Source of the DNA: Candidatus Marinacidobacterium sp.
Lineage (GTDB): Bacteria > Acidobacteriota > Vicinamibacteria > Marinacidobacterales > Marinacidobacteraceae
Direction of reading: 5' to 3'
Assembly: GCA_965202845.1 (NCBI GenBank)
Contig: OZ241856.1
Coordinates: 1,027,159-1,091,158 of the forward strand
DNA: 64,000 nucleotides
The position numbers and the translations under genes are program-made. The notes beneath the pieces are model-generated. The model saw nothing but the letters and a program-made list of their open reading frames with translations, was not told the DNA's origin and did no database searches. The first letter of the stretch is position 1; each line of letters begins with the position of its first letter. Below, one piece after another: positions 70-38,233 of the stretch.

Positions 70-844
70 CCGCATGGCGTCGGCCCGAAACGCGGGTTCC
101 GAGTCGGGGCTGGCGCTCGCGGTGGCGCTGATTCTGGCGCTCGCGCTCGCCGTCGTCAGCGCGGCGGTGATTTCCAGTCTCGGCGCCGGCAGCGACGTCA
201 GCCGGAACCGGCTGTGGGCCGAGACCGCGGCGGCCCGAGCCGAAGCGGGCCTTGAATACGCCAAGACGGTGCTGGCGGCGTGGGTGGAGCGGGACGGGAG
301 CCTGAACGGGATGCTCCCCCCGGCCCGCGCGCGGATCCGGGCGCCCGAAGGCGCCCGCTGGGGCGTCGCGCGTCCGGAGGACCCGGGCGCCTGTCGGGAC
401 CCGCAACAGGCCGGATGCCGCGACTACCAGATGTTCCGGGACGAACCGGTGGGCGGCGCCAGCTCGCGGATCTATGTCGGCAGGGTGCTCCGCACTCCCG
501 AGGGCCGGGCGCTGTTCTTCGATCCCCGCGATCCGCGCGCCGGCTGGACGCCTTCGGACGCGACGGTGGACCTGAACGGCGTGACGGTGTGGGCGCGCCG
601 CCCGGTGGTCGGAACCCGGGACGCCGGGGATCCCCACGACCGGGTCGTGCTCACCGCCGAAGCCCGCTATCCGCCCCCGGCGGATGCGGACGATCCCCAC
701 GCGGTCAGTCGGATCGAGATGGCGATCCGGGTGGCGCCGCGCCCTCCTTCGGAGGAGGGGGGCCTGGACGACTACGGAGGGCCGGGGACGCAATTTCGCC
801 TGGTGGATCGACGCCGGGGCGGCGACGCCCAGGTCGTTGAATGA
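62..844 (+). CDS. PilX-like type IV pilus minor pilin/assembly protein
   Basis: Hydrophobic N-terminus GLALAVALILALALAVVSAAVISSL resembles the PilX N-terminal domain. Sits immediately upstream of the PilY1-like gene. Start is GTG at 62 or ATG at 74. Confidence 0.55.
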   Translation: MNSRMASARNAGSESGLALAVALILALALAVVSAAVISSLGAGSDVSRNRLWAETAAARAEAGLEYAKTVLAAWVERDGSLNGMLPPARARIRAPEGARWGVARPEDPGACRDPQQAGCRDYQMFRDEPVGGASSRIYVGRVLRTPEGRALFFDPRDPRAGWTPSDATVDLNGVTVWARRPVVGTRDAGDPHDRVVLTAEARYPPPADADDPHAVSRIEMAIRVAPRPPSEEGGLDDYGGPGTQFRLVDRRRGGDAQVVE

Positions 845-850
845 CAACCG

Positions 851-857
851 GAGGAGA
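851..857 (+). promoter_or_regulatory. Shine-Dalgarno GGAGGAG upstream of the PilY1-like gene
   Basis: GGAGGAG lies 6 nt before ATG at 864. Confidence 0.5.
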
Positions 858-863
858 TGCCGA

Positions 864-3800
864 ATGAGGAAACGAAACGCCGCGATTCTGGTCCTTCTGC
901 TCGCCGCGCTGGCGGAGGGCGGGGAAGGCCCCGAAATCGAACGGGGCCGCGACCCGTTCGAGCTGGCGCGCAGTCAGGTTCGCCAGCGGGTCTGGGTGCT
1001 TCTCGACACCTCGCATTCCATGAACTTCGGGAGCAAGAACGATTCGCGTCTGGATGCGGCGCTTCGCGCGATCCGCGGGACGGTGGACGAGTTTCGCTCC
1101 CGGTCCGGCGAGCCGCTCGCCGATTGGGCGTTTGCGACGTTCGCCTACCAGGCGTCGCGCGGAGAGGACGTCCAGTGCTCCGACCCTTCCTTCGGCGCCG
1201 CACTTCCCACGGGATGGGAGAAGCTGACCTTGGGCGTTCCCAATCCGGGATGCCAGGGAGTCGCCATCCGAACCGTCCCGGACGACTGCGATCCCGAAGC
1301 CGGCGCCCGCGCGCTCTTGGGCGGGTTGCCCCGCGTCACGAATTCCGTCGTCACCCCGATCGGAATCGGGATCCAGCAGCTTGCGGCCCACATCAGCGAG
1401 AACCGGGCCGCCGATCTCGCTCCCGGCCAGCAGAATGTCATCCTCTTGCTCACCGATGGCGAGGACAACTGTGAATGCAAGGAATTCCCCTGGCTGGATT
1501 TTCATGAGGGGCCCGCCGGGATTGGATCGCAGGACAGACTGTCGCTCCGGATCCACGCCGCATCCCCGGATCCGGTTTCCTTGCCCTCGCCGGGCGTCGT
1601 TGATGTCATGGCTCACAACGCCGGCCTGCGGGCGCGCACCGCGTTTCGCCTGCTGGGAGGCGGGGATTCGGAAAGCGCCACCGGAGACATCTTCGTGGTG
1701 GGTTTCGGGATGTCCGTTCCTGAAATGCGGGAGCGCGTCAACCACATCGCCTGGATGGCCTCCGGTCTCCGGCGTCCGGCGCTCCATGCCCTGGACGGCG
1801 CCGCGCTCCGGGATGCGCTGCGGCGCACGATGGATGCGGTCACGTTGCCCCGGGGCCGGGTGGCGCTCTCCGCTCCGGCGCTGGCCTCGATCAAGGAACT
1901 GGTCGCCGGTTCGCCTTCCCCCCGCTTTCCGGGAAGCGATCCGGCCCGTTCCCCGACGGAACTGGTCGCCGATCCGTCTCGACCTGCCGACGTCCGGCGC
2001 GCGCTTGCGCTCCGGGAGATGTATCGGGACAACGTCCTCATCTCCACCGCCGCCGAATTGCACCGGCTGCGGGGGCATCTTTGGGCCAAGCCGACCCCGG
2101 CGCACGCGACTGCCGGACAGCGAATCTGGGACGCCGGCGAGCAGTTGCGCGACCGGGACCCCGACGATCGGATGCTGCTTTTCAACCGACCGGGCGGCCG
2201 CGAGCTGATTCCGTTCCGGGTGGGGAAGGTGACGGCGACCGATCTCGGCGTCGCTTCCGGCTATCTCGAGGAGATGGATGGAGCGGGCGCCCGTTCCGCT
2301 TCCGACGCCGCCGAGATCGTGGTGCGGATCACGCGGGGCGAGGAACTGGCGATCCACCCGGCGACCGGCCTCATCTACGACCCGGACGGCAGGCTCCACT
2401 TCGTCGGCGGGGTGGGGACCTGGAAGCTCCGCGAAACGCTCGCGACGCCGACGCCGGTGGGGAGTCCGCCGAGCCCGCCGGAGCGGGTCGCCCGGCGCCG
2501 TCAGGCCTACCGGTCGTTTTTCGCCGACCACGCGAACCGGCGCACCGTGCTCTACCTGCCGACCAGCGGCGGGATGCTGCACGCCTTCGCCGCCGACACC
2601 GGCCACGAGATCCTCGCCTACATCCCGGACGATGTGCTGGGGCCGGCGCCCGGCGAAGTCCATCCGGGGCGGACGCTGCTCCGGGATCTGGCGCTCCAGG
2701 CGGCGCGCCCGGAACCGGGCTTCGAAGTCAGTCGGGTGAGCCGCTTCACGCTGGCCGGATCGGCGGTGGTCCGGGACATCTGGCTGGACGGCGCGAACCG
2801 GTGGGCCACGGTCCTCGCCTTCGGGAGGGATTACGGCGGAAGGTTCGTCACCGCGCTCGACGTGTCCGGGGTGGGAGGCGTCTGGAAGGGCGACTTGAAG
2901 CCGCCCGCAGTCCGGCCCGGAGGGCCGGGAATTCCGAAACTGCTGTTCAACGTCGGAAACCGGACGAGCCGGGATTCGTTTTCCGGTTTCGGGCACACGC
3001 CGCTGCCGGTGCTGGCCGAGGTTCCGGATCGGGACGCCTCTTCTCGGTCGGTGGTGTTCCAGGCGGCGGGCGCCGGCGCTCCCGGGAACGATTCCGGCGC
3101 CTGGTTGTTCGCCCTGTCGCCGGAGGACGGCCGGATCGAGCGGCGCTTCCGGGTGTCCGGTCGTTCCGGAGCGGTGGTTCGCGCCGCCGCCACTCCGGCG
3201 CCCCCGGCGGTCTGGCGGCCCGCATTCGCCGGCAAGGGGGGCGGCGATCTGGTGACCCGGGTGTTTCTCGCCGATGTGCAGGGACAGGTGCACCGGCTGG
3301 ACACCCGGGACCCGGCGGGTTGGCGCTGGGGCGAGGCGTTCCAGCTGGGCGCGGACCAGCCGGTGCTCACTCCGCCGGTGGCCCTCGCGCTGCCGGGTCG
3401 CACCGAGCCGCACCTGCTGGTCGTCACCGGCGGCGACCGCCGGGTTCCGAACGGGGTTTCGCGGCTGGTGCTGCTCCGGGAAGCGGGAACCCGCATGGAG
3501 GAAGTGTGGAGTCGGGAGCTTGAGCCGGGCGAGACGCCGCAGGGAACTCCGGCGGTTCTTTCGGACGGAGTCGCGGTGGACGTGATCCTCGCCACGCAAC
3601 TGGCGGTTGAATCCTCCATCGGATGTTCGGGAACCCGCAGCGCGATCCGGTCCCGGTTGCGGGGGTTCAACGGGATCACCGGCCAGCCGGCCGCGGGCAT
3701 CGTGGCGTCCGAATCCGCGATTCTGGAGATGGGCAGCGGTCCGGCGCGGGGAGTGACGCTCTCCCGGAGCGGCAACATGGCGATCAGCGTCACCGGAGCG

Positions 3801-3911
3801 GCGGGCGAAGTGGTCGACATGGTTTTCGGAGATTTCCGCTTCCGGGTGCGCGACGGGGCGCTGGAGAACGTGACCCTTTTCGTCGAGGGCTTCCGTCGGT
3901 CTCCCTTCTGA
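864..3911 (+). CDS. pilY1: PilY1/PilC-like type IV pilus tip adhesin with N-terminal von Willebrand A domain
   Basis: Signal peptide MRKRNAAILVLLLAALAEG. vWA MIDAS motif VWVLLDTSHSMNF and ILLLTDGEDN. PilY1 C-domain signature TVLYLPTSGGMLHAFAADTGHEILAYIP. The 1273-aa antisense ORF over this region is rejected. Confidence 0.75.
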   Translation: MRKRNAAILVLLLAALAEGGEGPEIERGRDPFELARSQVRQRVWVLLDTSHSMNFGSKNDSRLDAALRAIRGTVDEFRSRSGEPLADWAFATFAYQASRGEDVQCSDPSFGAALPTGWEKLTLGVPNPGCQGVAIRTVPDDCDPEAGARALLGGLPRVTNSVVTPIGIGIQQLAAHISENRAADLAPGQQNVILLLTDGEDNCECKEFPWLDFHEGPAGIGSQDRLSLRIHAASPDPVSLPSPGVVDVMAHNAGLRARTAFRLLGGGDSESATGDIFVVGFGMSVPEMRERVNHIAWMASGLRRPALHALDGAALRDALRRTMDAVTLPRGRVALSAPALASIKELVAGSPSPRFPGSDPARSPTELVADPSRPADVRRALALREMYRDNVLISTAAELHRLRGHLWAKPTPAHATAGQRIWDAGEQLRDRDPDDRMLLFNRPGGRELIPFRVGKVTATDLGVASGYLEEMDGAGARSASDAAEIVVRITRGEELAIHPATGLIYDPDGRLHFVGGVGTWKLRETLATPTPVGSPPSPPERVARRRQAYRSFFADHANRRTVLYLPTSGGMLHAFAADTGHEILAYIPDDVLGPAPGEVHPGRTLLRDLALQAARPEPGFEVSRVSRFTLAGSAVVRDIWLDGANRWATVLAFGRDYGGRFVTALDVSGVGGVWKGDLKPPAVRPGGPGIPKLLFNVGNRTSRDSFSGFGHTPLPVLAEVPDRDASSRSVVFQAAGAGAPGNDSGAWLFALSPEDGRIERRFRVSGRSGAVVRAAATPAPPAVWRPAFAGKGGGDLVTRVFLADVQGQVHRLDTRDPAGWRWGEAFQLGADQPVLTPPVALALPGRTEPHLLVVTGGDRRVPNGVSRLVLLREAGTRMEEVWSRELEPGETPQGTPAVLSDGVAVDVILATQLAVESSIGCSGTRSAIRSRLRGFNGITGQPAAGIVASESAILEMGSGPARGVTLSRSGNMAISVTGAAGEVVDMVFGDFRFRVRDGALENVTLFVEGFRRSPF

Positions 3912-3914
3912 TTC

Positions 3915-5273
3915 GTGATGGCCCGCAAGACGAACCCGCAGCCGCGCGCCGCCGCCGGTTTCACGATCGTGGAGGTCGTGGTGGTGGCGGCCGTCACCCT
4001 TTTCGTTCTCGCCAGCTTCGTCACGCTCTTCCGGATGGGGCAGGGCGCGTTCCGCAGCGGGCCGGAGACCGCCGCGCTTCGGCTGGATGCGTCCGCCATG
4101 CTGGACTTCATCGCCCGCGACCTCGAGCGGGCGGGGTCGGGATTGCCGCCGGAGATCCCGGTGTTCAACAACCTGGACCGCGCCGGAAACCGGAATCCGG
4201 ACGGCCTCGACTTCCTTGCCGCGCCCGCCCGCCTCGTCGGGATCGGGTTCGAGCCGGTCACGTCCTTCGATGGCGCCACCGCACGCCTCGGAGTCCCCGC
4301 AAGCCGCCTCGACGCCTCGGCGCGCCCGTTCGCGGTGGTGTTCAACGACGATGAAATGATGCCGCGCTGGGCGTTCGGCGAGGTGGCTTCGGTCGCTTCG
4401 GCGGGCGGCGGGCTCGCGGGAAGCGTGTCCCAGGGCCTCAACCGGGTGGTGGGCGATTCCGCTTCGCCGCCGCCGGAGGGAGCGCGGGTCGGGCTGCGAC
4501 CGGTTCGGAACGACTGGCACTACCACTTTCGTTCGGTGGACGCGGACACCTTCGCCCCGGGCGGGGGCGGCGGCCTCATGCAGCGCGCCCTCAAGAGCGT
4601 GCTCGGCGGGGTGATCGACGCGGCGCTGCCCGGCCTGGGCTCCGGCCCGGCGGCCGCCTTGACCGACCAGGTGGTGTCCTCCATGCTCGAGACGCTCGCC
4701 GAGCGGGCGCAGAAGGCAGGGAAGTCACTCGGAAAGAAGGGCGGGCTTCCGGTCGGCGGAATCGGCGACGAGCCGGCGGAACGCTACGGCCTCTTCGGGC
4801 TCGGGCAACCCGGCGTCGTTCCGGTTTCGCGCATCCGCTACTGGCTTCGTCCCCCCGGACCCCGGGACGGCGGGCGGCGGACGCTGATGCGCCGGGTCGA
4901 TGAAGGCCAGCCCCAACCGGTCGGCTTCGCCGACGACCTGCAAATCCGGTACATCACGGGTCGGGACGCCGACCGACTTTTGGATGACCCGCCGACGTTC
5001 CTCGGCGACATGCAGACCGCCGCCGCGCTCGGCGATCACATCGTCCGGGCGGTGGAGGTGGAGATTCGGGCGGCGTCCAGCGCGGCCGCCTGGCGCACGC
5101 CGGACGGGGACGGGGCGGCGCCGCGGACCACTATTGTCCGGCGTCGCGTCGGATTGCGGATCGCCGCCGCCGGAGTCGGACGCCGCGCCTGGGAGGAGAG
5201 CATGCAGCGGAACGCGCTCCCCACCGAGATTCCGCGGATCGGCCCGCTGCGGTTCATCAAGCTCCCCTGGTGA
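3915..5273 (+). CDS. Type IV prepilin-like minor pilin (PilW/PilE-like, large)
   Basis: Class III signal and prepilin motif RAAAGFTIVEVVVVAAVTLFVL (G/FTxxE). The last ~165 codons are duplicated downstream at about 13072..13578. Confidence 0.65.
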   Translation: MMARKTNPQPRAAAGFTIVEVVVVAAVTLFVLASFVTLFRMGQGAFRSGPETAALRLDASAMLDFIARDLERAGSGLPPEIPVFNNLDRAGNRNPDGLDFLAAPARLVGIGFEPVTSFDGATARLGVPASRLDASARPFAVVFNDDEMMPRWAFGEVASVASAGGGLAGSVSQGLNRVVGDSASPPPEGARVGLRPVRNDWHYHFRSVDADTFAPGGGGGLMQRALKSVLGGVIDAALPGLGSGPAAALTDQVVSSMLETLAERAQKAGKSLGKKGGLPVGGIGDEPAERYGLFGLGQPGVVPVSRIRYWLRPPGPRDGGRRTLMRRVDEGQPQPVGFADDLQIRYITGRDADRLLDDPPTFLGDMQTAAALGDHIVRAVEVEIRAASSAAAWRTPDGDGAAPRTTIVRRRVGLRIAAAGVGRRAWEESMQRNALPTEIPRIGPLRFIKLPW

Positions 5274-5280
5274 GCGCGGC
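4776..5280 (+). repeat. Direct repeat copy 1 (~505 bp), 3' end of the pilin-like gene
   Basis: About 99% identical to 13072..13578. Roughly 4 mismatches, e.g. gggctc/ggactc, catcac/cgtcac, cgactttt/cggctgtt. Confidence 0.9.
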
Positions 5281-7783
5281 TGATGGAGTAGACTCGGCGG
5301 GAGATCATTTGCCGATTGTGCCCGGAGCGCCGCGGCGCGGTTCGTTCCGGACTGCCGGCAGCTCGCACGCGCATCCTTCCACCGGACGGAGCAAGGGAAT
5401 CCAGCATGCACCCGACGCAAGAAAGAAGGCGCAATGTGGAGCGCCTCAAGGAGTTGTTGCTGGAGATGCTCCGGCTTGACCGCGGCGACTTGGACTTCGG
5501 CCTCTACCGAATCATGCGGATGAAAGCGACGGAAATCAGGAGTTTCCTCGATCGGGATTTGTTTCCGCAGGTTCAGGAAGTGATTGATGGCGCTACCGAC
5601 GAACAGCGAGCCGCGCTCGAGAAGGAGATCGCGAACATCAGCGATTCGTTGCGAAAATATGGCGCTGTTCCCGATGACGCCCTTGCGGTCCAAAACCTGA
5701 AGGCGGAGTTGAAGAGGGCGAATACGGACGTCGCCGCGGAAGCCGACGTGTTCGGCCATCTCGTCAATTTCTTCGCCCGCTACTACGCCGAAGGGGATTT
5801 CATGCCGCTTCGCCGTTACTCGTCGGGCGACGCGCCCACCTATCGGATCCCTTGGGACGGCGAGGAGGTGAAACTGCACTGGGCCCATTCGGACCAGTAC
5901 TACGTCAAGACGACCGAGAACTACGCCTCCTACGCATTCCTCGCCAGTGCGGGCGACGCATCGTTCCGGGCGCGCTTCGAGATTGCGATGGCGGACAACG
6001 AGAAGGACGACATCAAGGAGGCGAACGGTCGGCAGCGCCGCTTCGTTCTCGCAAGGCAAGCGGTGGCGCTCAAGGACGGCGAACTGGTCGTCCGCTTCGA
6101 GCACCGTCCCCTTCGGGAGAGCGAGAAACAGAAATGGCCCGGCAACGGCGCAAGCCAGCAGGAACGGATCAATGGGGCGGCGGTGGAGCGCATCCGGGCG
6201 GCGGTCGAACGGCTGGATCCGGAGCGGCTTTCGGCCCTCGACACGCCCGCCCCGACCGACGTCAAGCAGCAACGAACCCTGCTGGAGAAGCATGTGGGGC
6301 GGTACACGGCGAAGAACAGTTTCGATTACTTCATCCACAAAGATCTGGCCGGATTTCTGCGCCGGGAACTGGACCTCTACCTGAAAACCGATGTTCTGGA
6401 CCTTCAGGACCTCGCGTTCGGCGATGCCGACCGACTGCGTCGCGCCCTGGGGCGGATGCGCGGCGTCCGGGAGATTGGCGGCAAGCTCATCGACTTCCTC
6501 GCGCAACTGGAGAATTTTCAGAAACGCCTCTGGCTCAAGAAGAAATTCGTCCTGGAGACCGAGTGGTGCGTGACTCTGGATCGGATTCCGGAACGCTTCT
6601 ATCCGGAGATCGCCGCAAACGAGGCGCAGCATGCGGAATGGGTGGAGTTGTTCGCCATCGACCGGATCGTGGGCTACGCCAAGCCGCTCCCAGTCGGTTT
6701 TTTCAAGGCCAATCCGTTTCTGACGCTGGACACCCGCCATTTCGACCGCAGCTTCAAGGATCGGTTGCTGGCCGCCCTCTCGGAAGCCGCCCCCCTGGAC
6801 GAACAGACCGATGGACTTCTGATCCAGGGCGAGAACGCCCAGGCATTGCGTCTGTCAAGAAAGCGCTACGCGGGGAAAATCCAATGCATACATATTGATC
6901 CTCCGTACAATACGCAAACAAGCGGTTTCATGTACAAGAACGGCTACATGCATTCCAGCTGGATGGCGATGATGCAAGAACGCATGGAATGCTGTATGCC
7001 CTTGCTCGAGGAGCGGGGACATTTTCTTTGTCATATTGACGAAAACGAACATGGACGTTTGCATGTCTTGATGGATCAATTCGACCTTCCCGATGCGGGA
7101 ACCATTGTGTGGGACAAGAGAAATCCCATGACCGCCGGGGGCGGCGTCGCCATACAGCACGAGTATGTACTGTGGCGGACGCATTTTTCTTCGTCCATTG
7201 ATCTTCATCACGGCAACGAGGATTTGATCCTGGACAATGCGGCCGCCTTGATCGAAAAGCACGGAATGTCTGATTTGGCGAGAAAGGAATTTGCGAAGTG
7301 GGTCCGGGGAGAAACTCGACTGAGCAACGGCGACAAGTCCTATGCGTACATTGATTCGAAGGGACAGGTCTATCGATCCGTCAGCTTGCGAGCCCCGGAA
7401 ATGAGGGAGGACCCGAAATTTCATGAATCCCTGATACACCCCATCACGGGAAAACCCTGCCCGGTTCCGCCGAACGGTTTCTCGCGCACTCCGGAAACGC
7501 TTGCAAGCATGATGGAAAGAGGTGAAATCCTGTTCGGCAAGGACGAAACCTCGCAGCCCAGACAAAAGCGCGTCTTGCATCGGGACGCGAGCAAACAGAT
7601 TTCATCCGTTATCCCGGACGCCAAAAGGGGAAAATCCGAACTGGACGAACTGGGATTGGGCGATTTCCCCTACGCGCACGCAACCTCCCTCTACGACATT
7701 CTGGTAGGCGCGGCGGCGAGAAAACATCAAGACACGGTGCTGGACTTCTTTGGCGGATCGGGGACGACCGGCCACGCGGTCCT

Positions 7784-7791
7784 CAATTTGA
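7784..7791. repeat. Target-site duplication CAATTTGA (left)
   Basis: Identical 8-mer immediately flanks both IS ends. ISL3 elements make 8-bp duplications. Confidence 0.7.
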
Positions 7792-9259
7792 GGCTCTTTC
7801 AAATACCGAGTGGGTACGCGACATGAGGGTTGAGCTTGGAGAAGTCCAGTTTTCCGGCGATGAGGAAGAACACGGTGCGGATGGTCTGGAAGGTTCCGTA
7901 GCCTCTGGCTTTCCGCTTGGCCGCCTGAAACAGGCCGTTGAGCGCCTCGATGAAGCCGTTGGTCTGGCGGGTTCGGGCCCACGCGACGATGCCCTCGAGA
8001 TGTTTGCGGATCATCCGCGCGACGGCTTTCATGGGTTCGACCTTGGAGCGGTTCACGTTGGCGCACCACTGCCGGAGCATGGCTCTGACGACGTTGACCT
8101 GCTTGCGGTTGAGGATGTTCCGGAGTTGCTCGCGGTACATCCAGGCTCGGGCGGTGCGCTTTCCGGGGGCCTGCGCGATGAGAGCGTTGAGTTGGGCGCG
8201 CTGTTCGGGGCCGAGTCGTTCGGGATTTTTGAGGAGCGCCCAGCGCATGCCCTTGAGTTGGGGGTTGGCGCGCTGCTCGATGCGCCGGGTCTGGTCGAGG
8301 GCCTTGGATGCGTGAGCGATGACGTGGAATTTGTCGAAGGTGATCTGGGCGTTGGGGAGATGCTCTGCGACGCCCTTCATGTAGGCGGGGGACATGTCGA
8401 TGGAGGCGACTTCGACGGCTTCGGGGTCTCCGCCGTGGGCTTCGAGGCTTCGGGCGAATCGGTCGACGGAGTCGGCGGCGCGGCCTTCTCCGACGAAGAT
8501 GACCCGGCGTTTTCGGGCGTCTGCGACGACGGTGACGTAGTTGTGGCCGCGCGCGCGGGAGGTTTCGTCGATGGCGACGGCGCGGACGTCGGCTTGGTCG
8601 TCGGTTTCGGTGGCGAGTTCCACATAGCGGTTGGAGATGGCCTGGGTTTGGTGCTGGGAGAGTCCGGCGAGCCGTGCGACGGCGGCGAAGGTCATGTCCT
8701 GGCACATGGCGAGAATCAAGGCTTCGAAGAGGAGGGAGAACCCGGAGAGCTTGCCGGCCCAGGGCGGCGAGACCAGCGCGACCTTGCCGTTGAGGAGGCG
8801 CACCCGGGGGACGCGCGCCACCAGTTCGCACTCGAATTGGAAGAAGTTGAGGTGGCGGAAGCGCTTGGTCTTGGTGTCGTGGACCGGATGGAGGCCGTCG
8901 TGGTTCTGGTGGGCGAAGCGGGCGCCCCTGCGGAAATCGACGCGGATGCTCAGCTTTCCTTGGTCCTTGTCGAATTCCACGTTCTCGACGAACCAGGGGT
9001 CCGGGATGCCGAGGGCTTGGGCGAAAAGCTCGTGTAGCACTGGATGCGCTCCTTTTTTTCAGGGTCGAAAGCGGGAAAAGTGTTCCATTGGTGTGTGGCG
9101 ACGCTGGCTGGGGACGGTTGCGGCTTCCCGCTTTCGACCCTTTTTCGAGCGTGCCCGCCGGATTCCGTGAGTCAAGGGTTCGCTACGCCGTGCAAGCCCG
9201 CCCTTGACACCCGGAATCCCGGCGGTCTCCATTCTACCCACTCAAATCTCAATTGAGGC
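7792..9259 (-). mobile_element. ISL3-family insertion sequence (~1.47 kb)
   Basis: Imperfect terminal inverted repeats GGCTCTTTCAAATACCGAGTGGGTA and (rc) GCCTCAATTGAGATTTGAGTGGGTA. Carries a single transposase ORF. Flanked by an 8-bp duplication. Boundaries are good to about 1-2 nt. Confidence 0.8.
7799..9040 (-). CDS. ISL3-family transposase
   Basis: 413 aa (MLHELFAQALGIPDPWFVENVEFD...KFHVIAHASKALDQTRR...). Length and composition are typical of ISL3 (IS204/IS1001/IS1096) transposases. The stop lies inside the terminal repeat. Confidence 0.85.
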   Translation of the reverse strand: MLHELFAQALGIPDPWFVENVEFDKDQGKLSIRVDFRRGARFAHQNHDGLHPVHDTKTKRFRHLNFFQFECELVARVPRVRLLNGKVALVSPPWAGKLSGFSLLFEALILAMCQDMTFAAVARLAGLSQHQTQAISNRYVELATETDDQADVRAVAIDETSRARGHNYVTVVADARKRRVIFVGEGRAADSVDRFARSLEAHGGDPEAVEVASIDMSPAYMKGVAEHLPNAQITFDKFHVIAHASKALDQTRRIEQRANPQLKGMRWALLKNPERLGPEQRAQLNALIAQAPGKRTARAWMYREQLRNILNRKQVNVVRAMLRQWCANVNRSKVEPMKAVARMIRKHLEGIVAWARTRQTNGFIEALNGLFQAAKRKARGYGTFQTIRTVFFLIAGKLDFSKLNPHVAYPLGI

Positions 9260-9267
9260 CAATTTGA
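9260..9267. repeat. Target-site duplication CAATTTGA (right)
   Basis: Same 8-mer as at 7784-7791. Confidence 0.7.
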
Positions 9268-9970
9268 ATCGGCTGGACGGGGGCCGGCGGAAGTACATCC
9301 TGGTCGAGATGGGGGATCATTTCGACACGGTGATGCTGCCCCGCCTCAAGAAGGTCGCCTACTCCCCGGACTGGAAGGAGGGCGAACCGACCGCGCGCGA
9401 CAAGGGGATGAGCCAGCTCATCAAAACCGTTCGCATCGAATCCTGGGAGGACACGCTGGACAGCCTGGAAGCCAAACAGCCTCCGGAAGACGTGTTGAAG
9501 CGCTATCCGACGGTGGCCGAAGATTACCGGCTGCGGTACGCCCTGAATGAGGAAACCGCCGGCAGCCCCTGCCTGCTTGGCGAGGACTTCCGGAACCCGT
9601 TCGCGTACACGCTCTCGGTCGTCCGGGACGGCGTCCGCCAGGAGACGCCGGTGGATTTGGTGGAGACGTTCAACCTGCTTCTCGGCTTCCGGGTGGAGTC
9701 GCGCCGCCGCGTTGATGGCGTGCTCGCCATCTTCGGAGTGGATCCGGAGGGACGGACATGTCTGATCCTCTGGCGCGACCGGGACGAGATCGACAATGAC
9801 GCGCTGGACGACTGGCTCCGACGTCATCGTGCGAACCTCCCCGACGGACTTGAACTGATCTACGCCAACGGGGACCATACGCTGAACGCGGTCCAGGAAA
9901 AGGACGAAATCTGGAAGGCGAAGCCCATCGAACCGATCTTCCGAAAACTCATGTTCGCCGGGGATGGAGG

Positions 9971-12900
9971 ATGACTCCGTTCGAAAACCGGCTCGTCCTG
10001 AACCGCTTCCTCTGCCGGGAATTCGGTTATCAGGACGTGGCGTCCATGCTGGCGCTGCTCCGCGACGTGGACGCCGGGACCGATGCGAACGGCGAGAGCT
10101 TCTATTTCCGCCGGATGTTTCCCGACCCGGGCGCCACGAAGCTGACGCCGGAACGACTCATCGCCTGTGATGCGTCCATCGAGGAAACCGGAAGGCGACT
10201 GCGCATGACTCCGGAGCACGGTCGGGGATGGAAGCCGCACCAATGGCTGGCGCTGCTGTTCGCCGAGCACTACCTGCGCCTCTATTTCGAGGACCCGGAG
10301 GACCTCCAGGCGAAGCTGGACGCGGAGCGGCGCGCTCACCGGGCCACCAGCTCGATGCCGAAGTACTCGCTGGACGATCTGCGCGCCGTGGCGGTGCAAA
10401 GCGCCACCGGCTCCGGCAAAACGCTGGTCATGCACGCCCACATCCTCCAGTACCGGCGCATCGCCCAGGAGGCGGGCCGCCCGCCCCGGAACGTCATTCT
10501 GGTGACCCCGAACGAGCAGCTGTCCGGGCAACACGAACGCGAATTCCGCGCCAGCAACCTGCGGGCGCGCATCTTTTCCAGCGCGGCCAGCGCGGGCTTG
10601 CCGGGGACGGTCGAGATCATCGACGTGAACAAGCTCGCCGAACGGAAAGGCGTGAAGCGGGTCGCGGTTCGTGATTTCGGCGACAACAACCTCGTCCTGG
10701 TGGATGAGGGGCATCTCGGCTCTTCCGGCAAGGTCTGGCGCAAACTGCGGAAGGAATTGGCGGAGGGCGGCTTCACCTTCGAGTATTCGGCCACCTTCAA
10801 CCAGATCGTCAGCAAGGACGACGCCCTGCGGGACGCCTACGGCAAGAGTCTGCTGTTCGACTATTCCTACCGCGCCTTCCATGCGGACGGTTACGGCAAG
10901 GACTTCGAGATCGCCAATCTTCCGGGAGGGGCGGCGGACCAGAACAGCCGTATCTATCTGCTGGGCGCGCTGCTGAGCTTCTACCGGCAGTGCCGCATCT
11001 GGCGCGAGGGGCGCGGCCGCTGGGCCGCATACCAGGTAGCCCGACCGCTATGGGTGTTTCTCGGCAAGACGGTCGCCAGGCATTCCAGGTCCCAAGTGGA
11101 CCGGGAGGCGCGGTCGGATGTCCTGTTGATCCTTGACTTCCTCGGCTGGGTTCTGGCGCATGGTGCCGCGGTCCGCCCCTTGCTCTCCCGCCTTCTGAAA
11201 GGCCAGTCGGGGCTGACCGGAGCGGACGATGCGGACTACTTCGCCGGCCGGTTCGACGACCTGAAGGACGTCGACCCCGACGAGCTCCATGATGACATAT
11301 GCAAGACGCTGTTTCACGGGGCTGGGCGGCTCCATGTGCGCTACCTGACCCAGGGCGAAGGCGAGCTGCATCTGCGCACGGCGGACAACGCGCCTTTCGG
11401 AGTGGTGAACATCGGGGACTCGCAGGCGCTCTATCGGCTTCTCGAAAAGGGAGGCAACCCTGATCTCGTCGTCGAACGGGACGCCGGTTTTGTCCGGCGG
11501 TTGTTCGCCGATGTGGACCGGGCCGATTCGACGGTGAACATCGTCATCGGCGCGAGACGCTTCATCGCCGGCTGGAATTCCTGGCGGGTGAGCGCGATGG
11601 GGCTCATGCACGTCGGCGTCCGCGAAGGGCCGGAGATCATCCAGATGTTCGGACGCGGCGTCCGGCTCAAGGGCCGGAACATGAGTCTCAAGCGTCACCG
11701 CGCTCTCGCCGAAGCCGATCCGCCCGCCGACAGCGACGGGCTACGGGAACTGGAGACGCTGCGCATCTTCGGCCTCAAGGCGAACTACATGCAGGCGTTC
11801 CGCGAGATTCTGGATGCGGAGGGAGTCACGACGGAAACCATCAAGATGTGCGTCGCCTGGAATTTCGCAAGGGAGGATCTGAAGCTTCTCCGGATCGGGG
11901 AAGGAAAGGAGTACGTTCGCTCGGACGACCGTCCGATCCTCCCGGAATCCGGCGCTCCCAGGGCGAAACGGGATTTCCACTCCCGGCTGCAAGCCTTCGA
12001 CTCCAGGGGGACGGCGACCGAAGCGGAGACTCGGCAGCCGGCGCCGCTGGATCGCGGGCAAACCGCCCTCTTCAACCGCGCCCGCATCCATGACCGGCTG
12101 CTGGAGCGCAAGGAACGGGAAGGCTGGAGGAATCTCGCCATGGACCGTGCGACGATCGATGCGTTGCTGGACCGGGACGATTGGTACGACCTGTACCTGC
12201 CTCCGGAATGGCTCGAACCGAAGAGTGTCTCCGATCTGCGAAAGCTGGAGGACGTCGCCGTCGAACTGATCGCCGACTACGCTGACCGGTTCTGGCGCAA
12301 ACGGCGTCGTGCGTGGGAATACGAACGTCTGGAAGTGGGGACGCTCAACGAGTCCGATTCCAACTACATCGGCGCCTACCGGTTTGCGGTAGCTGCCAGC
12401 GAGGAGATCCTGATTGACCATATTCTCACGATCAAGAGAAAAGCGAGCAGAAGGGAACTCAAGGAAGGCCCTTACGATCACGCGGGGTTTGGCGTTCTGA
12501 TGCGCAAAGAGCACGCCTACCAGCCGTTGCTCCACGATCCTGACGAACGCAAAGTCGATATATCCGTTCAACCAGTGCTCCTGAACGACGCCGAGAAGCG
12601 GGTGGTCAAGACACTGACCGACCTGAAGAAAGGCGATCCCCCCTTGCGGGGATGGGAGTTGTCCCTGATCCGCAACCAGAGTCGGGGGCGGGGTGTGTCC
12701 TTCTTCGACGATCATTCCTATTACCCGGATTTCATCGTCTGGCTGGTGAAGGGAGAGCAGCAGCACATCCTGTTCCTTGACCCGAAGGGGCTGAGTCGAT
12801 TTGATTCGGACGAAAAAAAGAAAGTAGGGCTGCACGCTGAAATCAAGAACGTCGAAGCGCGCATCCGCCGCAACGACCCGACGATCCGCCTGCATGCATA

Positions 12901-13039
12901 TGTGATCTCGGTTACACCGCCCGGCGAGATCGGGAGCGACGAAAAGCGCAGCAGCAAGAATGAATGGGAGGATCGAGGCGTTTATTTTCTGGAGGACGCC
13001 TCCTGGGCCGTCCGCTTGCTTGAGCGGGTCCTCGCGTGA
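9971..13039 (+). CDS. res: Type III restriction enzyme Res subunit (helicase-nuclease)
   Basis: Helicase motif I ATGSGKTLVMHA and motif II VLVDEGHLGSSGK. C-terminal PD-(D/E)xK-like YYPDFIVWLVKGEQQHILFLDPKG. ATG overlaps the mod stop as ATGA. Confidence 0.8.
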   Translation: MTPFENRLVLNRFLCREFGYQDVASMLALLRDVDAGTDANGESFYFRRMFPDPGATKLTPERLIACDASIEETGRRLRMTPEHGRGWKPHQWLALLFAEHYLRLYFEDPEDLQAKLDAERRAHRATSSMPKYSLDDLRAVAVQSATGSGKTLVMHAHILQYRRIAQEAGRPPRNVILVTPNEQLSGQHEREFRASNLRARIFSSAASAGLPGTVEIIDVNKLAERKGVKRVAVRDFGDNNLVLVDEGHLGSSGKVWRKLRKELAEGGFTFEYSATFNQIVSKDDALRDAYGKSLLFDYSYRAFHADGYGKDFEIANLPGGAADQNSRIYLLGALLSFYRQCRIWREGRGRWAAYQVARPLWVFLGKTVARHSRSQVDREARSDVLLILDFLGWVLAHGAAVRPLLSRLLKGQSGLTGADDADYFAGRFDDLKDVDPDELHDDICKTLFHGAGRLHVRYLTQGEGELHLRTADNAPFGVVNIGDSQALYRLLEKGGNPDLVVERDAGFVRRLFADVDRADSTVNIVIGARRFIAGWNSWRVSAMGLMHVGVREGPEIIQMFGRGVRLKGRNMSLKRHRALAEADPPADSDGLRELETLRIFGLKANYMQAFREILDAEGVTTETIKMCVAWNFAREDLKLLRIGEGKEYVRSDDRPILPESGAPRAKRDFHSRLQAFDSRGTATEAETRQPAPLDRGQTALFNRARIHDRLLERKEREGWRNLAMDRATIDALLDRDDWYDLYLPPEWLEPKSVSDLRKLEDVAVELIADYADRFWRKRRRAWEYERLEVGTLNESDSNYIGAYRFAVAASEEILIDHILTIKRKASRRELKEGPYDHAGFGVLMRKEHAYQPLLHDPDERKVDISVQPVLLNDAEKRVVKTLTDLKKGDPPLRGWELSLIRNQSRGRGVSFFDDHSYYPDFIVWLVKGEQQHILFLDPKGLSRFDSDEKKKVGLHAEIKNVEARIRRNDPTIRLHAYVISVTPPGEIGSDEKRSSKNEWEDRGVYFLEDASWAVRLLERVLA

Positions 13040-13071
13040 GCCGGAATATGAGACGCCATTCTCCCGACTTT

Positions 13072-13571
13072 CGGCGGAACGCTACGGCCTCTTCGGACTC
13101 GGGCAACCCGGCGTCGTTCCGGTTTCGCGCATCCGCTACTGGCTTCGTCCCCCCGGACCCCGGGACGGCGGGCGGCGGACGCTGATGCGCCGGGTCGATG
13201 AAGGCCAGCCCCAACCGGTCGGCTTCGCCGACGACCTGCAAATCCGGTACGTCACGGGTCGGGACGCCGACCGGCTGTTGGATGACCCGCCGACGTTCCT
13301 CGGCGACATGCAGACCGCCGCCGCGCTCGGCGATCACATCGTCCGGGCGGTGGAGGTGGAGATTCGGGCGGCGTCCAGCGCGGCCGCCTGGCGCACGCCG
13401 GACGGGGACGGGGCGGCGCCGCGGACCACTATTGTCCGGCGTCGCGTCGGATTGCGGATCGCCGCCGCCGGAGTCGGACGCCGCGCCTGGGAGGAGAGCA
13501 TGCAGCGGAACGCGCTCCCCACCGAGATTCCGCGGATCGGCCCGCTGCGGTTCATCAAGCTCCCCTGGTGA
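13072..13571 (+). pseudogene. Duplicated 3' fragment of the pilin-like gene (no start, truncated)
   Basis: Encodes ...ERYGLFGLGQPGVVPVSRIRYWL...RFIKLPW*, identical to the C-terminus of the 3915..5273 product. The track ORF 12960..13571 is an upstream run-on. Confidence 0.7.
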
Positions 13572-13578
13572 GCGCGGC
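13072..13578 (+). repeat. Direct repeat copy 2 (~505 bp)
   Basis: See copy 1. Begins about 30 bp after the res stop. Confidence 0.9.
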
Positions 13579-14569
13579 GCGTGATGCCGACATCCGTCGG
13601 GGGGCCGGAACGTTCCCGGCCCAGCCCCACGACGCGCTGTTCCGCCTGCTGGGCGCCGCTCCCAGGCGCGCCGCGACACTGCTCGCCGAATTCCTGCCGC
13701 CCGAAGTCCGCGAACGCCTGGACCCGGACCACCCGCCCGAACTCATCGAGGGCGCCTCCATCGACGGCGAGGGAAAGGCCGCCCGGGCCGACGCCATCTT
13801 CCGGGCGCGGCTCAAGGATGGCGCCACCGCTCGGATCCACGTCCTGCTGGAGCACAAGTCGCAGCCGGACGCCCGCACCCCGCTCCAGCTGATGCGCTAC
13901 ATCCAGCGGATATGGACCAGGGAACGGGACAGCGGACACGGGGCGCCCGGGCGCGTGCCGCTGGTCATCCCGGTGGTCTTCTACAACGGACCCGGCGCCT
14001 GGACCACGCCCCGCTCGATCGTGGACATGATCGATGCTCCGGAGGGACTCAAACATCTGGCGAGCCAATTCGGGACGTACCTTCTGTACGACCTCACCCG
14101 GATGGCTCCGGAGGAACTCCCGAAGAATCCGGAGACGCGGAGCGCCCTTTTGGCGATGGGGCGCGTCCACGCCAGGAAGGCCACCGACGCGGAGGCGGAC
14201 ATCATCGTGGAGGGGATCGATTCCGGCACCGACTTCGGGCAGTTCCTGCTACAGTACGTCGCAACGCTGGTTCTGTCGCTGGATCAGATGAAGGCGGCGA
14301 TGGGGCGCACCGGTGCCGAACCCGAAGAAGTGGAGGCCGTTATGGAAACCGCAGCTCAGACTTGGTTGAAGCAAGGCAAAGCCGAGGGCAGGGCCGAAGG
14401 CAAAGCCGAAACGCTCGCCCGGCAGCTCGCGCGCCGCTTCGGACGTCCGCTCGGTGAAGTCCAGGCCCGTATTGCCGGGGCCGATCTCGGGCAACTGAAC
14501 CGCTGGCTGGACGCGGTGCTGGACGCGCCCACGTTCGAGGCGGTTTTCGGTTCGGCCCCGAAACGCTGA
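13568..14569 (+). CDS. Rpn/YhgA-like PD-(D/E)XK recombination-promoting nuclease (putative transposase_31 family)
   Basis: N-terminal PHDALFRLLG and IHVLLEHKSQPD core. C-terminal repetitive KAEGRAEGKAETLARQLARRFG is typical of the family. GTG start overlaps the pilin-fragment stop as GTGA. Confidence 0.7.
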   Translation: MSAARDADIRRGAGTFPAQPHDALFRLLGAAPRRAATLLAEFLPPEVRERLDPDHPPELIEGASIDGEGKAARADAIFRARLKDGATARIHVLLEHKSQPDARTPLQLMRYIQRIWTRERDSGHGAPGRVPLVIPVVFYNGPGAWTTPRSIVDMIDAPEGLKHLASQFGTYLLYDLTRMAPEELPKNPETRSALLAMGRVHARKATDAEADIIVEGIDSGTDFGQFLLQYVATLVLSLDQMKAAMGRTGAEPEEVEAVMETAAQTWLKQGKAEGRAEGKAETLARQLARRFGRPLGEVQARIAGADLGQLNRWLDAVLDAPTFEAVFGSAPKR

Positions 14570-14605
14570 CGTCCCCGGGATGGCGTTTGAAGCCTGGCGG
14601 GGAAA

Positions 14606-16054
14606 GTGAGAGCATCCCCAGTTGACGTGAAACCGCCACCCCCTCGAGAACGCTCCTCCCTTTGCCTCCGGCGCGCGCTCCTGCCCGCGCTCCTGCCCGC
14701 GTTCCTCATGGTTCCCGGACTGGATATAGCCGCCGCTGACGCGCCGTCCCGGAGCACCGTCTGGCGGGACCTGGTGCGCAGGGGGCATTCGCTGGTGATC
14801 GGGCGCTTCGAGGGGAAGTTCGAAAGCCCCGATTTCCGATCCCGGCGGATCGTGCTGCGGCATCGGGACACCGGACGGCGGGAGACGCTGCGGATCGACG
14901 ACGGACTCGGCCTGATCGCCGAGATCGTGGAGCCCGGGGTGTACGACGTGCTGGCGTTCGAGGCGGTCTACCTGCCGCAGATCCGCCCGATGAATCCCCG
15001 TCGCGTCCGGCCCATCCGGCAGCGATTCAAGGTGACTCCGCGCGAGCACGAGATCGGGGAAGCGCTGATCCTGGTGCCCCCCGACCGGCCGGTCTACATC
15101 GGAACCATCCGCGCGGCGGCGGAGCGGCGGGGCATGGTGTACGAGGGACAAAAGCTCCGGGTGCTCGACGATTTCGAGGTGGCGATGGAGCGGCTGGCCA
15201 CCGTCCATCCGACGCTGGCCGCCAGTCTCGAGGAAGAGGCGCTGGCGCCGCAGCGCCACTTCATGCTCCGTCCGACCCGGCAGGAGGACGCGCTGCTCGA
15301 GGCGGTGGTCGGACGGGACGATCCGATCGCCCAGGCCCGTCGCTACATCGAGGACGGCAAGTATTCCCAGGCGATCGACTGGCTCTCGACCGACATGCCG
15401 GTCTCCGACAACCATCGCAACCAGGCGAGGCTGCTGGTCGGGGAAGCCCATCTCGGCAACCGCAACCTGCCTCTCGCCATCGACGAACTCGGCGAAGTGC
15501 TGCTCAGCGAGCCGGGCAACCTGCGCGCCCTGCGACTGCTGGCGCGGGCCCATTCGCTGAACGGGGATCTGGAGGACGCCGGGAACCTGTACCAGGCGCT
15601 TTTGGACATGCGCCCCGGAGACGCCGAGGCGCACCTGCAGATCGGGTATCTCCAGGCGCTGCGGAACGAGGAAGCGAATTCGCTGGCCTCCTTCGAGGTG
15701 GCCTTCGAGGCCGACATCGACTACCTGATGCACGATCTGGCGCCGTTTCTGCTCGCCGTGCGGGGGAGCGCCGAGCACGGGGCGCTCTACGAACCCGCCA
15801 CCCTGCTGGCCACCGACGCTCCGATGCGCGATCGCCAGGGCGGGGGGTCCCGGCGGTCGGCGCGCGCCGATGGCATCCTGGTGCTGATCGATCACCGGGG
15901 GCAGGTCAAGGCGGCGCGCTTCGCCCCCGACAGTTCCGACCGGGCGCACCTGACCATGATGTCCCTGGTGCGCGGGCGCTACCGGCCCGCCAGGTTGAAC
16001 GGAGTGGCGGTTCCCTCGATTCTCGCCAGCGGCAACTTCGCCGGGGAACGCTGA
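14606..16054 (+). CDS. TPR-repeat protein with TonB C-terminal-like domain
   Basis: TPR-like helices LRALRLLARAHSLNGDLEDAGNLYQALLDMRPGDAEAHLQIGYL. C-terminus DHRGQVKAARF...RPARLNGVAVPS resembles TonB_C. The antisense 566-aa ORF is rejected. Confidence 0.55.
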   Translation: MRASPVDVKPPPPRERSSLCLRRALLPALLPAFLMVPGLDIAAADAPSRSTVWRDLVRRGHSLVIGRFEGKFESPDFRSRRIVLRHRDTGRRETLRIDDGLGLIAEIVEPGVYDVLAFEAVYLPQIRPMNPRRVRPIRQRFKVTPREHEIGEALILVPPDRPVYIGTIRAAAERRGMVYEGQKLRVLDDFEVAMERLATVHPTLAASLEEEALAPQRHFMLRPTRQEDALLEAVVGRDDPIAQARRYIEDGKYSQAIDWLSTDMPVSDNHRNQARLLVGEAHLGNRNLPLAIDELGEVLLSEPGNLRALRLLARAHSLNGDLEDAGNLYQALLDMRPGDAEAHLQIGYLQALRNEEANSLASFEVAFEADIDYLMHDLAPFLLAVRGSAEHGALYEPATLLATDAPMRDRQGGGSRRSARADGILVLIDHRGQVKAARFAPDSSDRAHLTMMSLVRGRYRPARLNGVAVPSILASGNFAGER

Positions 16055-16126: not shown

Positions 16127-16878
16127 AGGAGGCGTTCGACGGCATCCTCGAGCGCACGGAACGGCTGGTCGGCGCTCGGCGCCGGGTGCAGCAACCCATC
16201 CCGGTCGATCAGGAAGTTGGCCGGGTAGCGGGCGGTCTCCAGGAACACCGGCGGCATGACTCCGCCTTCAAGCGGCGCGCCGGGAAGCAGCAGCGGGTAG
16301 TCCACCGGAACCGATTCGTCCTGGAAGGCGCGCTGGACGGCTTCGTCCTCGGTGGAGATTCCGAAGACCACCAGCCCCCGGTCGGCCTGCTCGGCCGCCA
16401 GCCGGTCCAGTTCCGGCATCTCCGCACGGCAGGGGGGACACCAGGTGGCCCAGACGTTCACCAGCGCCACCGACCCCCGATGCTCCGAGAGCTGGTGGAT
16501 GTTTCCGTCAAGGTCCAGGGCGCGGAAATCGGGCGCCGGCACGCCGGCGAGCGCCAGATTCGCCGCCTGCCGGGCGCGCCGCATCCCTCCCCGGATCGGG
16601 AGGACGGCCAGACCGAGCGCCAGCACGGCGACCAGCGCTCCGATCCAGCCGGGGACGCTGAGGCGCCGCCGGGCGCGCCAGTCCCGAACCGCCATGAGGA
16701 GCGCGATCCCCGGAGGGATCAGCATCCCCACCGTGACCACGGTCAGCCGGAACATCCAGTCGCCGTCGGGGTTGTCGCTCAACCGGGTGAGGACGCGGTA
16801 GAGGGCGGCGCCGATCCCCGCCGAGAGCAGCGGCGCGAGCAGGCCGGGCAGGAAGGGCGAGCGGGGCGGGGGCTTCAT
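16105..16878 (-). CDS. TlpA-like membrane-anchored thiol:disulfide oxidoreductase (thioredoxin fold)
   Basis: WATWCPPCRAEMPEL CxxC motif with N-terminal TM helices. Confidence 0.75.
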   Translation of the reverse strand: MKPPPRSPFLPGLLAPLLSAGIGAALYRVLTRLSDNPDGDWMFRLTVVTVGMLIPPGIALLMAVRDWRARRRLSVPGWIGALVAVLALGLAVLPIRGGMRRARQAANLALAGVPAPDFRALDLDGNIHQLSEHRGSVALVNVWATWCPPCRAEMPELDRLAAEQADRGLVVFGISTEDEAVQRAFQDESVPVDYPLLLPGAPLEGGVMPPVFLETARYPANFLIDRDGLLHPAPSADQPFRALEDAVERLLETPETP

Positions 16879-23045: not shown

Positions 23046-23465
23046 CTACAACGTCAGGGTCAGCCTGATGAGGGAGAAGACGAGTCCGCCGCCCAGGATG
23101 ATCAGCGGTCCGCCAATCCACTTCACGAGGCTGATCTTGGCGGCCTGGATGTTCGCAATCGTGTCCTTCCGCAGCCCTTCGATGTCCTTCTTCGTCTCGT
23201 TCCGCAGGGTCTCGATGGCCAGCTCCACTCGTGCGATGTCCTTCTTCGTGTCCTCCCGCAGGGTCTCGATGGCCACCTGCGTCTCCTTGCGCAGGGTCTC
23301 GATGGCCAGCTCCACTCGCGCGATGTCGTCCTTCGTCGCCAAGCTGGCGTGGATCGCGCCGGCCTGCGCTTCGGCCAGCGTCTCGGCCTGCTGCTCGGTG
23401 AACCCGCCCCCGATCAGCTGCTTGGCGTAGCGGAGGGTGTCGAACGCGGGCGCGACTTCAAGCAT
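23046..23465 (-). CDS. DUF1640/XhlA-like coiled-coil membrane protein
   Basis: Internal repeats IARVELAIETLRKET / IARVELAIETLRNET. C-terminal TM segment WIGGPLIILGGGLVFSLI. Confidence 0.5.
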   Translation of the reverse strand: MLEVAPAFDTLRYAKQLIGGGFTEQQAETLAEAQAGAIHASLATKDDIARVELAIETLRKETQVAIETLREDTKKDIARVELAIETLRNETKKDIEGLRKDTIANIQAAKISLVKWIGGPLIILGGGLVFSLIRLTLTL

Positions 23466-23507
23466 GGTCCGATTATAGGTCAGCGGCTGGGGAATTCGCG
23501 GCGAGCG

Positions 23508-23575
23508 GATGCTTGGCGCAGCGGAGGGTGTCGAACGCGGGAACGACGTTCAGGCGTGGTCCGATCCCATTAGAC
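23508..23575 (-). repeat. Degenerate duplicate of the 5' end of the DUF1640-like gene
   Basis: About 80% identical to 23411..23478 (cttggcg[ct]agcggagggtgtcgaacgcggg...). The copy lacks ATG. Confidence 0.5.
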
Positions 23576-24554: not shown

Positions 24555-28199
<3,645 letters not shown>

Positions 28200-34404: not shown

Positions 34405-34452
34405 GAGGGAACGGCGCGGATTCTAGTGGTTCGGATTCGTAGAATCCCCGCC

Positions 34453-38191: not shown

Positions 38192-38233
38192 CCCCGGGCG
38201 CCGGAGCGAGGGTCAGGCGATCCCCGACCGGGA

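Follow-up and report, generated by a model that had tools for sequence, protein, structure and literature searches.

In a 64,000-nucleotide stretch of contig OZ241856.1 of Candidatus Marinacidobacterium sp. (the window hereafter, meaning this whole length), a Type III restriction-modification (R-M) gene pair, mod-res, follows directly on the stop codon of a pilin-like gene, here termed X, and is enclosed by a 507-bp direct repeat of the 3′ end of X. By all criteria that are assessable without an empty site, its sequence identifies the locus as an instance of R-M insertion with long target duplication. The route of insertion that we favor, at a probability of about 0.5, is a Campbell-type single crossover between X and a circular molecule carrying mod-res. 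This route is preferred because one donor allele and one crossover account for the four mismatches between the repeat copies, and because the duplication of both flanks of a related cassette elsewhere (locus L009, in a different genome) is explained in one step by integration of a circle. The locus appears to be a clean example of R-M genes spreading in the absence of a dedicated mobility gene, with an unusually long duplication and in an uncultured member of the Acidobacteriota; as a single locus, it is an illustration of the class and not a discovery.

The repeat and the insert

The two repeat copies, at 4774-5280 and 13072-13578, align without gaps at 99.2% identity, as seen both in the alignment and by direct comparison. 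They differ at four positions (left/right: 4799 G/A, 4953 A/G, 4976 A/G and 4979 T/G), are identical over their final 301 bp, and end at the same base, seven positions beyond the X stop codon. Outside the copies the sequence diverges abruptly on both sides. A BLAST comparison of the whole 64-kb window with itself returned no other long repeat and no third copy, with the exception of short repeats at ~23.2-23.6 kb, so the repeat is neither a product of chance nor an element dispersed within the window. An earlier note on this DNA had placed the repeat at 4776-5280 and 13072-13578 with about four mismatches; the repeat is real, and only its left start was 2 bp short. The same note had named a widespread dispersed element as the finding that would undo its interpretation, and the repeat instead proves to be local gene sequence with a single other copy in the window. 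Its anatomy of a complete gene, an insert and a truncated duplicate is likewise borne out by alignment and gene content. The truncated duplicate, X′, is present in the source annotation as a 128-amino-acid open reading frame (ORF; P0202).

The insert spans 5281-13071 (7,791 bp, or 6,315 bp without its insertion sequence (IS) and one copy of the target-site duplication (TSD)). Between the repeat copies we found only mod, res and one ISL3-family IS, which is the content that the earlier note had described. The start of res overlaps the stop codon of mod (ATGA, 9971-9974), and mod lies directly upstream on the same strand; judged by Mod, Res and this gene order, the pair is predicted to encode a Type III R-M system. 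The likely start of mod is the ATG at 5406, where homology to the mod genes of three other cassettes (L009, L010 and L011) begins. Without the IS, mod matches the PADLOC model MTase_III at E=8.4e-242 and encodes a DPPY motif (IHIDPPYN), and its 3′ part shares 55-65% identity with the C-terminal regions of the same three Mod proteins. A 100% identical Res protein (P0081) is present in the protein collection on a 2,864,726-bp contig. Res belongs to a family with more than 7,000 homologues; at the sequence level, no solved structure matched it. The insert is compositionally foreign. Its GC content without the IS is 61.2%, compared with 71.1% and 71.4% in the flanks, and GC at third codon positions is 0.75 in mod and 0.80 in res, compared with 0.83-0.90 in flanking genes, so that the AT-richness suggested earlier holds for both base composition and codon usage. 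A second Type III Res paralogue (P0100, 67% identical) lies outside the window, presumably on the same source contig.

The ISL3 element contains an intact transposase ORF at 7799-9040 on the minus strand and is bounded by a perfect 8-bp TSD, CAATTTGA, at 7784-7791 and 9260-9267; its terminal inverted repeats are imperfect and share GAGTGGGTA. The intact ORF and the perfect TSD suggest that this insertion is recent. Removal of the IS and one TSD copy yields a stop-free mod ORF of 1,060 codons that aligns end to end with its homologues. Because the element sits inside mod with an 8-bp TSD of its own, it represents a later event and not the carrier of the insert. No second copy of it occurs in the window. 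Type III Res depends on Mod for DNA recognition, and with mod interrupted the R-M system is therefore presumably inactive now; for the same reason, an IS in mod would disarm the system without killing the host.

The search for a resident mobility function was negative. No integrase or recombinase gene was found within or beside the repeats, no tRNA gene in positions 1-22000, and neither a second IS nor a flanking IS pair. The insert ends have no inverted repeats, and a search of the junctions for microhomology, hairpins and terminators gave nothing convincing. A composite transposon or IS-mobilized unit was set aside, as the single IS is internal to mod and the insert ends lack inverted repeats. 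Site-specific integration, with an attachment site that includes the 3′ end of X, would have the same topology as an insertion into a gene end (intact gene, insert, displaced 3′ fragment), and one homologous cassette (L014) adjoins integrase and recombinase genes. We regard this route as very unlikely, given the missing recombinase and tRNA genes and the length of the repeat: the identity shared by attachment sites is usually far shorter than 507 bp. An integrase- or tRNA-associated island was rejected on these grounds.

The class of R-M insertion with long target duplication was reportedly also treated by Nobusato et al. in 2000 (Gene 259:99). As described by Furuta, Abe and Kobayashi (2010, NAR 38:2428, PMC2853133), the class requires that R and M both be part of the insert, that the insert be shorter than 20 kb, that the duplication exceed 30 bp, and that no other mobile element be present. 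Here both R and M lie inside a 7,791-bp insert, and the 507-bp repeat is the only one of its kind in the window. The locus further shares with the class an R-M pair without a mobility gene, an atypical insert GC content, and direct repeats of a single-copy target that often overlap the 3′ end of a gene. It differs in several respects. Its repeat is longer than the 46-423 bp given in the accessible text of PMC2853133, where the Type III examples from C. jejuni are 195/208 and 106/110 (208 and 110 bp). Its host belongs to the uncultured Vicinamibacteria, whereas Acidobacteriota are not among the phyla named in that text. Published cases are defined by comparison with an empty site, whereas the relatives available here are at most 81% identical in X. 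In addition, the portion of PMC2853133 at hand leaves the mechanism open, perhaps tied to double-strand breakage, whereas the mismatches and L009 provide some, though not decisive, mechanistic evidence. Experiments by Takahashi et al. (PMC3031569) found R-M plasmid integration to be IS-linked or illegitimate and did not reproduce long target duplication.

Mismatches, homologous cassettes and the route of insertion

In the scenario that we favor, a horizontally acquired mod-res pair, itself lacking a mobility gene, would have been added directly after the X stop codon. A circular DNA of ~8.3 kb, bearing mod-res and a 0.5-kb piece of X from a closely related donor, would have recombined once with the chromosomal X by homologous recombination (Campbell-type). 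Such a single crossover would leave an intact X on the left and the truncated X′ on the right, and the ISL3 element would have jumped into mod afterwards. The 507-bp repeats should permit RecA-dependent loss of the island as an 8,298-bp circle, and the same crossover could then insert the released circle into the genome of any conspecific. This arrangement shares with the integration of a suicide plasmid the intact gene, the insert, the truncated duplicate, repeats as long as the homology, and reversibility. In contrast to that situation, no plasmid, replicon or donor was found here; the circle is hypothetical and would have been excised from a donor chromosome. If this route is true, an R-M unit that gains a piece of a conserved neighboring gene would become transferable among conspecifics by ordinary recombination.

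The four mismatches bear on this scenario. Three are synonymous third-position differences, and the fourth is I347V, at a residue where orthologues have I, V or L. With the closest outgroup as reference, the ancestral state is found in the right copy at the three sites in 4953-4979 and in the left copy at 4799. Three of the derived states fall in the left copy and one in the right, and all four are GC-to-AT. One donor allele with all four derived states, combined with a crossover between 4799 and 4953, would reproduce the mismatch pattern exactly, and the inferred recipient allele has the outgroup amino acid at 4/4 sites and the exact outgroup codon at 3/4.

Several points weigh against integration of a circle by a single crossover. 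The four mismatches are very few and their statistics weak (P 0.03-0.07): the probability that at least 3/4 are synonymous is 0.065, that some three of four fall within 27 bp is 0.028, and that all four fall in the first 206 bp is 0.027. The copy under selection contains three of the four derived states, a distribution equally compatible with duplication in situ that was followed either by purifying selection or by a later tract of allelic recombination in X. With a diverged donor, the identity of the last 301 bp requires conversion or chance (P=0.027). A flanking target repeat accompanies only one of the six other cassettes described below (L009). No circular vehicle, donor genome or empty site was found in the databases searched, and the model shifts the origin of mod-res beside X into an unseen donor. 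The earlier note had proposed the same Campbell-type event. Its model is topologically sufficient and fits both the mismatches and L009, but duplication in situ fits the window about equally well and no circular vehicle has come to light.

The alternative of a one-step target duplication would have the linear or excised R-M unit joined to breaks or nicks 507 bp apart, possibly a staggered cleavage from restriction attack, followed by gap filling and later by mutation or a short tract of allelic recombination or conversion. Consistent with this, the insert extends little beyond its genes (by 125 bp ahead of mod and 32 bp behind res), the derived states are all GC-to-AT, as new mutations would be, the three in the selected copy are silent or conservative, and the last 301 bp of the repeat are identical. 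We nonetheless consider this route rather unlikely. Three independent changes within 27 bp would be improbable (P ~0.007-0.03), the cassettes have no conserved ends, and the double-flank order at L009 could not be produced in one step. To our knowledge, no enzyme makes staggered cuts 0.5 kb apart. The cited literature offers no mechanism either, as far as the available text of PMC2853133 extends.

The homologous cassettes were compared through Res homologues of 69-72% identity in six other genomes. Their similarity to the window is limited to the mod and res coding regions, without conserved non-coding ends, and a discrete element with conserved ends was rejected on that basis. In L009, whose cassette is 72% identical to that of the window, the 80-nt 3′ end of the upstream amidohydrolase gene (R80; stop codon plus ~8 nt) is repeated behind res at 96% identity. 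A second duplication, at ~90% identity, concerns a ~440-nt segment after res (S), which recurs 3 kb downstream, past a VapBC/AAA-ATPase/DUF4276 module; the segment opens with a remnant of the 3′ end of the DUF4276 gene. The resulting order is R80 - mod-res - S1 - R80′ - module - S2, with nested direct repeats at 5890-5969, 13072-13576 and 16138-16581 of that locus, and the cassette contains an Abi_C-like middle gene. Integration of a circle (R80-mod-res-S) by a crossover in R80 would yield this order in one step; the circle would derive from a diverged donor with an alternative island at the same locus. The joint between S and R80′ shows a patch of partial identity (~9/13 nt), which is consistent with illegitimate joining.

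The contexts of the cassettes are unrelated: two occupy one site (CobS / cassette / GidA), L014 lies beside integrase and recombinase genes, and the others sit amid housekeeping genes. A small variable gene (Abi_C-like, AbiJ_NTD4-like or of no assigned kind) stands between mod and res in L009, L010, L012 and L014, and is missing in the window and L011. The central part of Mod (~residues 600-800) is not conserved between cassettes and is presumably the target recognition domain. A plasmid or phage vehicle was rejected, as the closest Res homologues on plasmids or phages are at most 38% identical.

The L009 architecture also bears on whether the duplication is an assembly artefact, in which a chimeric path through strain variants would give a false repeat. 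The closest relatives are metagenome-assembled genomes (MAGs), as the source probably is (a single 2.86-Mb contig), and four differing sites are what co-assembled strains could show. However, at the junction with X′ the end of res abuts sequence from the middle of a gene, a join that a strain bubble would not produce, the 507-bp repeat and the 8.3-kb interval are short relative to long reads, and the same architecture occurs independently in L009. An artefact is therefore highly improbable.

In PMC2853133, a virus-like cycle of insertion, repeat-mediated amplification and release is proposed for such R-M units, citing amplification experiments. The long direct repeats described here could likewise support excision, amplification and re-invasion. 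In contrast to such a cycle, the unit is single-copy, its mod gene is inactivated by an IS, and there is no sign of amplification or excision.

The variable site after X

Gene X is, by its sequence and neighborhood, a pilin-like gene closing a type IV pilus/type II secretion-like operon. Its ORF opens at GTG 3915, while the database gene call starts at ATG 3918; it ends in TGA, and the exact 451-amino-acid product is present in the protein collection, where the 128-amino-acid call for X′ stands as representative of its 90% cluster. The N-terminus reads AAG followed by FTIVEVVVVAAVTLFVL (AAG/FTIVE) and then a hydrophobic helix, which is a class III signal type (G/F-T-x-x-E), and the N_methyl match scores 16.7 bits, below the Pfam cut-off of 21.2. 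Orthologues of X were recovered from four Vicinamibacteria (Acidobacteriota) MAGs at 81, 69, 68 and 57% identity, one per recovered locus. In these relatives X is the final gene of a cluster with T2SSE, T2SSF, pilin, prepilin peptidase (Peptidase_A24) and PilY1-like genes, and the PilY1-like gene of the window is 66-75% identical to the L001/L002 orthologues. That DNA uptake by the pilus is the reason for the insertion site is conjecture; under the Campbell-type model, the site is set by homology on the circle and so not by the function of X.

Similarity to all relatives ends at the X stop codon, with a syntenic left flank and a right flank that differs per lineage, which makes the position after X a lineage-variable boundary. 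Directly after the stop codon, each of three lineages has a different neighbor. In L001, the closest relative, X is followed by a 239-amino-acid hypothetical protein, AlaRS and RecX. In L002/L003 and L004, it is followed by a UbiE-type methyltransferase, TatA, TatC, an S41 peptidase and a HEAT-repeat protein, and then by a TPR gene. These five genes are absent from the whole 64-kb window, where an Rpn-like gene stands in their place (window 13572-14735, compared with L002:11337-16792 and L004:11256-16185). After its TPR gene, the window again matches L002/L004 (AhpC, epimerase, hydrolase).

The relatives carry one copy of X and no R-M genes after it, with the closest genome 81% identical in protein X. 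The earlier note had regarded mod-res at this position without repeats as a finding that would refute its interpretation, and no relative has R-M genes at the site. The empty site that it predicted, with X joined directly to the Rpn-like gene, was not found among the relatives' loci; these have a single X without R-M genes, and none has an Rpn gene there. A query with protein X returned no conspecific and no empty site from species-representative genomes or JGI metagenomes, only relatives at 57-81% identity.

The Rpn-like gene deserves consideration in its own right. According to a start-codon scan, its sole in-frame start is GTG 13568, a codon within the repeat that shares bases with the X′ stop codon, and homology to its paralogues begins at ~13607, 28 bp beyond the repeat end. 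At least four full-length paralogues (100, 90, 85 and 79% identity) and a fragment lie on the source's 2,864,726-bp contig, with copies elsewhere in the source genome annotated as P0204, P0206, P0207 and P0228. Close relatives were absent from the matches to this family; beyond the paralogues, identity drops to 58% or less, in homologues on contigs of up to 5.7 Mb. These patterns point to the Rpn-like gene as a lineage-specific multi-copy acquisition and not an ancestral neighbor. Upstream of a common 'G(T/G)FPA(H/Q)PHDALF' the paralogue N-termini differ, and the family looks like a proliferating element in which the 5′ end is fixed by the junction. The idea that the window copy is a simple 5′ truncation was dropped, as paralogue N-termini vary and one is of equal length. 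PADLOC gave no support for a defense role of this gene.

These observations provide the basis for another explanation, in which multi-step rearrangement at a hot spot after the X stop codon would have produced the repeat as a by-product of unequal exchange or tandem duplication. The exchange would have taken place between downstream 'alleles' (mod-res and the Rpn-like gene), perhaps promoted by the Rpn-like nuclease family. The lineage-specific neighbors after X, the end of the relatives' similarity there and the replacement of five L002/L004 genes by the Rpn-like gene all fit this view, as do the at least four full-length copies of a lineage-specific family and the start codon that the window copy borrows from the end of X. 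In addition, the base at which both repeat copies end, stop+7, is where the two downstream 'alleles' diverge. We judge this explanation improbable. Nothing points directly to Rpn activity, the window contains no second copy of other flank sequence, and more events are needed for an outcome that overlaps the Campbell model and differs from it only in substrate. A more specific and very doubtful version holds that Rpn-like proteins, which we take to be PD-(D/E)XK 'recombination-promoting' nucleases, drive an active capture site after X, where breaks would have promoted homology-poor joining; such joining would both have brought in the Rpn copy, fused to the end of X in place of five genes, and have allowed addition of the R-M genes with the 0.5-kb duplication. 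If that is true, the enzyme so far missing from accounts of defense-gene insertion with 'long target duplication' would be an Rpn-type nuclease.

The site also resembles defense islands and hot spots in having lineage-variable defense-type content directly after a conserved gene. That content is a Type III R-M system here; at L009 it consists of R-M genes together with an Abi-like gene and, after them, VapBC and an AAA ATPase plus DUF4276. Unlike a defense island, the present locus contains one confidently assigned defense system.

Table 1. Coordinates of the features at and around the mod-res insert (positions in the window)
Feature	Position	Strand	Basis or remark
PilY1-like gene, second-to-last of operon	684..3911	+	Weak Pfam T4P_PilY1 match; orthologue upstream of X in L001, L002, L004
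Gene X, intact 451-aa pilin-like (pseudopilin-type) protein, last operon gene	3918..5273	+	N_methyl motif
Left repeat copy	4774..5280	+	X codons 287-452, stop codon, 7 bp beyond
Left-edge spacer, repeat to mod ATG, 125 bp	5281..5405	.	Without similarity to relatives, other cassettes or rest of window
mod 5′ part, Type III	5406..7791	+	Pfam N6_N4_Mtase E=4.5e-21; ORF opens 5316
ISL3-family IS, 1,468 bp, within mod	7792..9259	-	DDE_Tnp_ISL3 (PF01610) E=2.4e-67; helix-turn-helix and zinc-ribbon domains
mod 3′ part	9268..9974	+	In frame with 5316-7791 after removal of IS and one TSD copy
res, Type III, 1,022 aa	9971..13039	+	Pfam ResIII E=2.4e-9; PADLOC REase_III E=1.2e-140, residues 285-1011
Right-edge spacer, res stop to right repeat, 32 bp	13040..13071	.	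Without similarity to other cassettes
Right repeat copy X′	13072..13578	+	3′ fragment of X, without 5′ part
Rpn/YhgA-like (Transposase_31) gene	13568..14569	+	PF04754 E=9e-37
TPR gene, right limit of variable region	14606..16054	+	82-83% identity to L002/L004 TPR proteins

Other features of the window

Beyond the mod-res locus, a gene for a protein with an HNH_2 endonuclease domain (37313-38191) lies in a dip of GC content at 36500-38200 (0.63-0.65, compared with ~0.70), between genes of methionine metabolism and one for a cytochrome c peroxidase; this region may be a further small acquired segment. The short repeats noted above are two tandem 87-nt units, 84% identical, at 23159-23336 (also 23419-23565), and they fall within a small minus-strand coiled-coil gene (23046-23465) that has a weak CCDC90-like match. 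In addition, a large ORF at 32533-36306 encodes homocysteine S-methyltransferase and MTHFR domains after an N-terminal region of ~650 amino acids that has no Pfam match, and a canonical B12-dependent methionine synthase gene lies nearby on the minus strand at 24555-28199.

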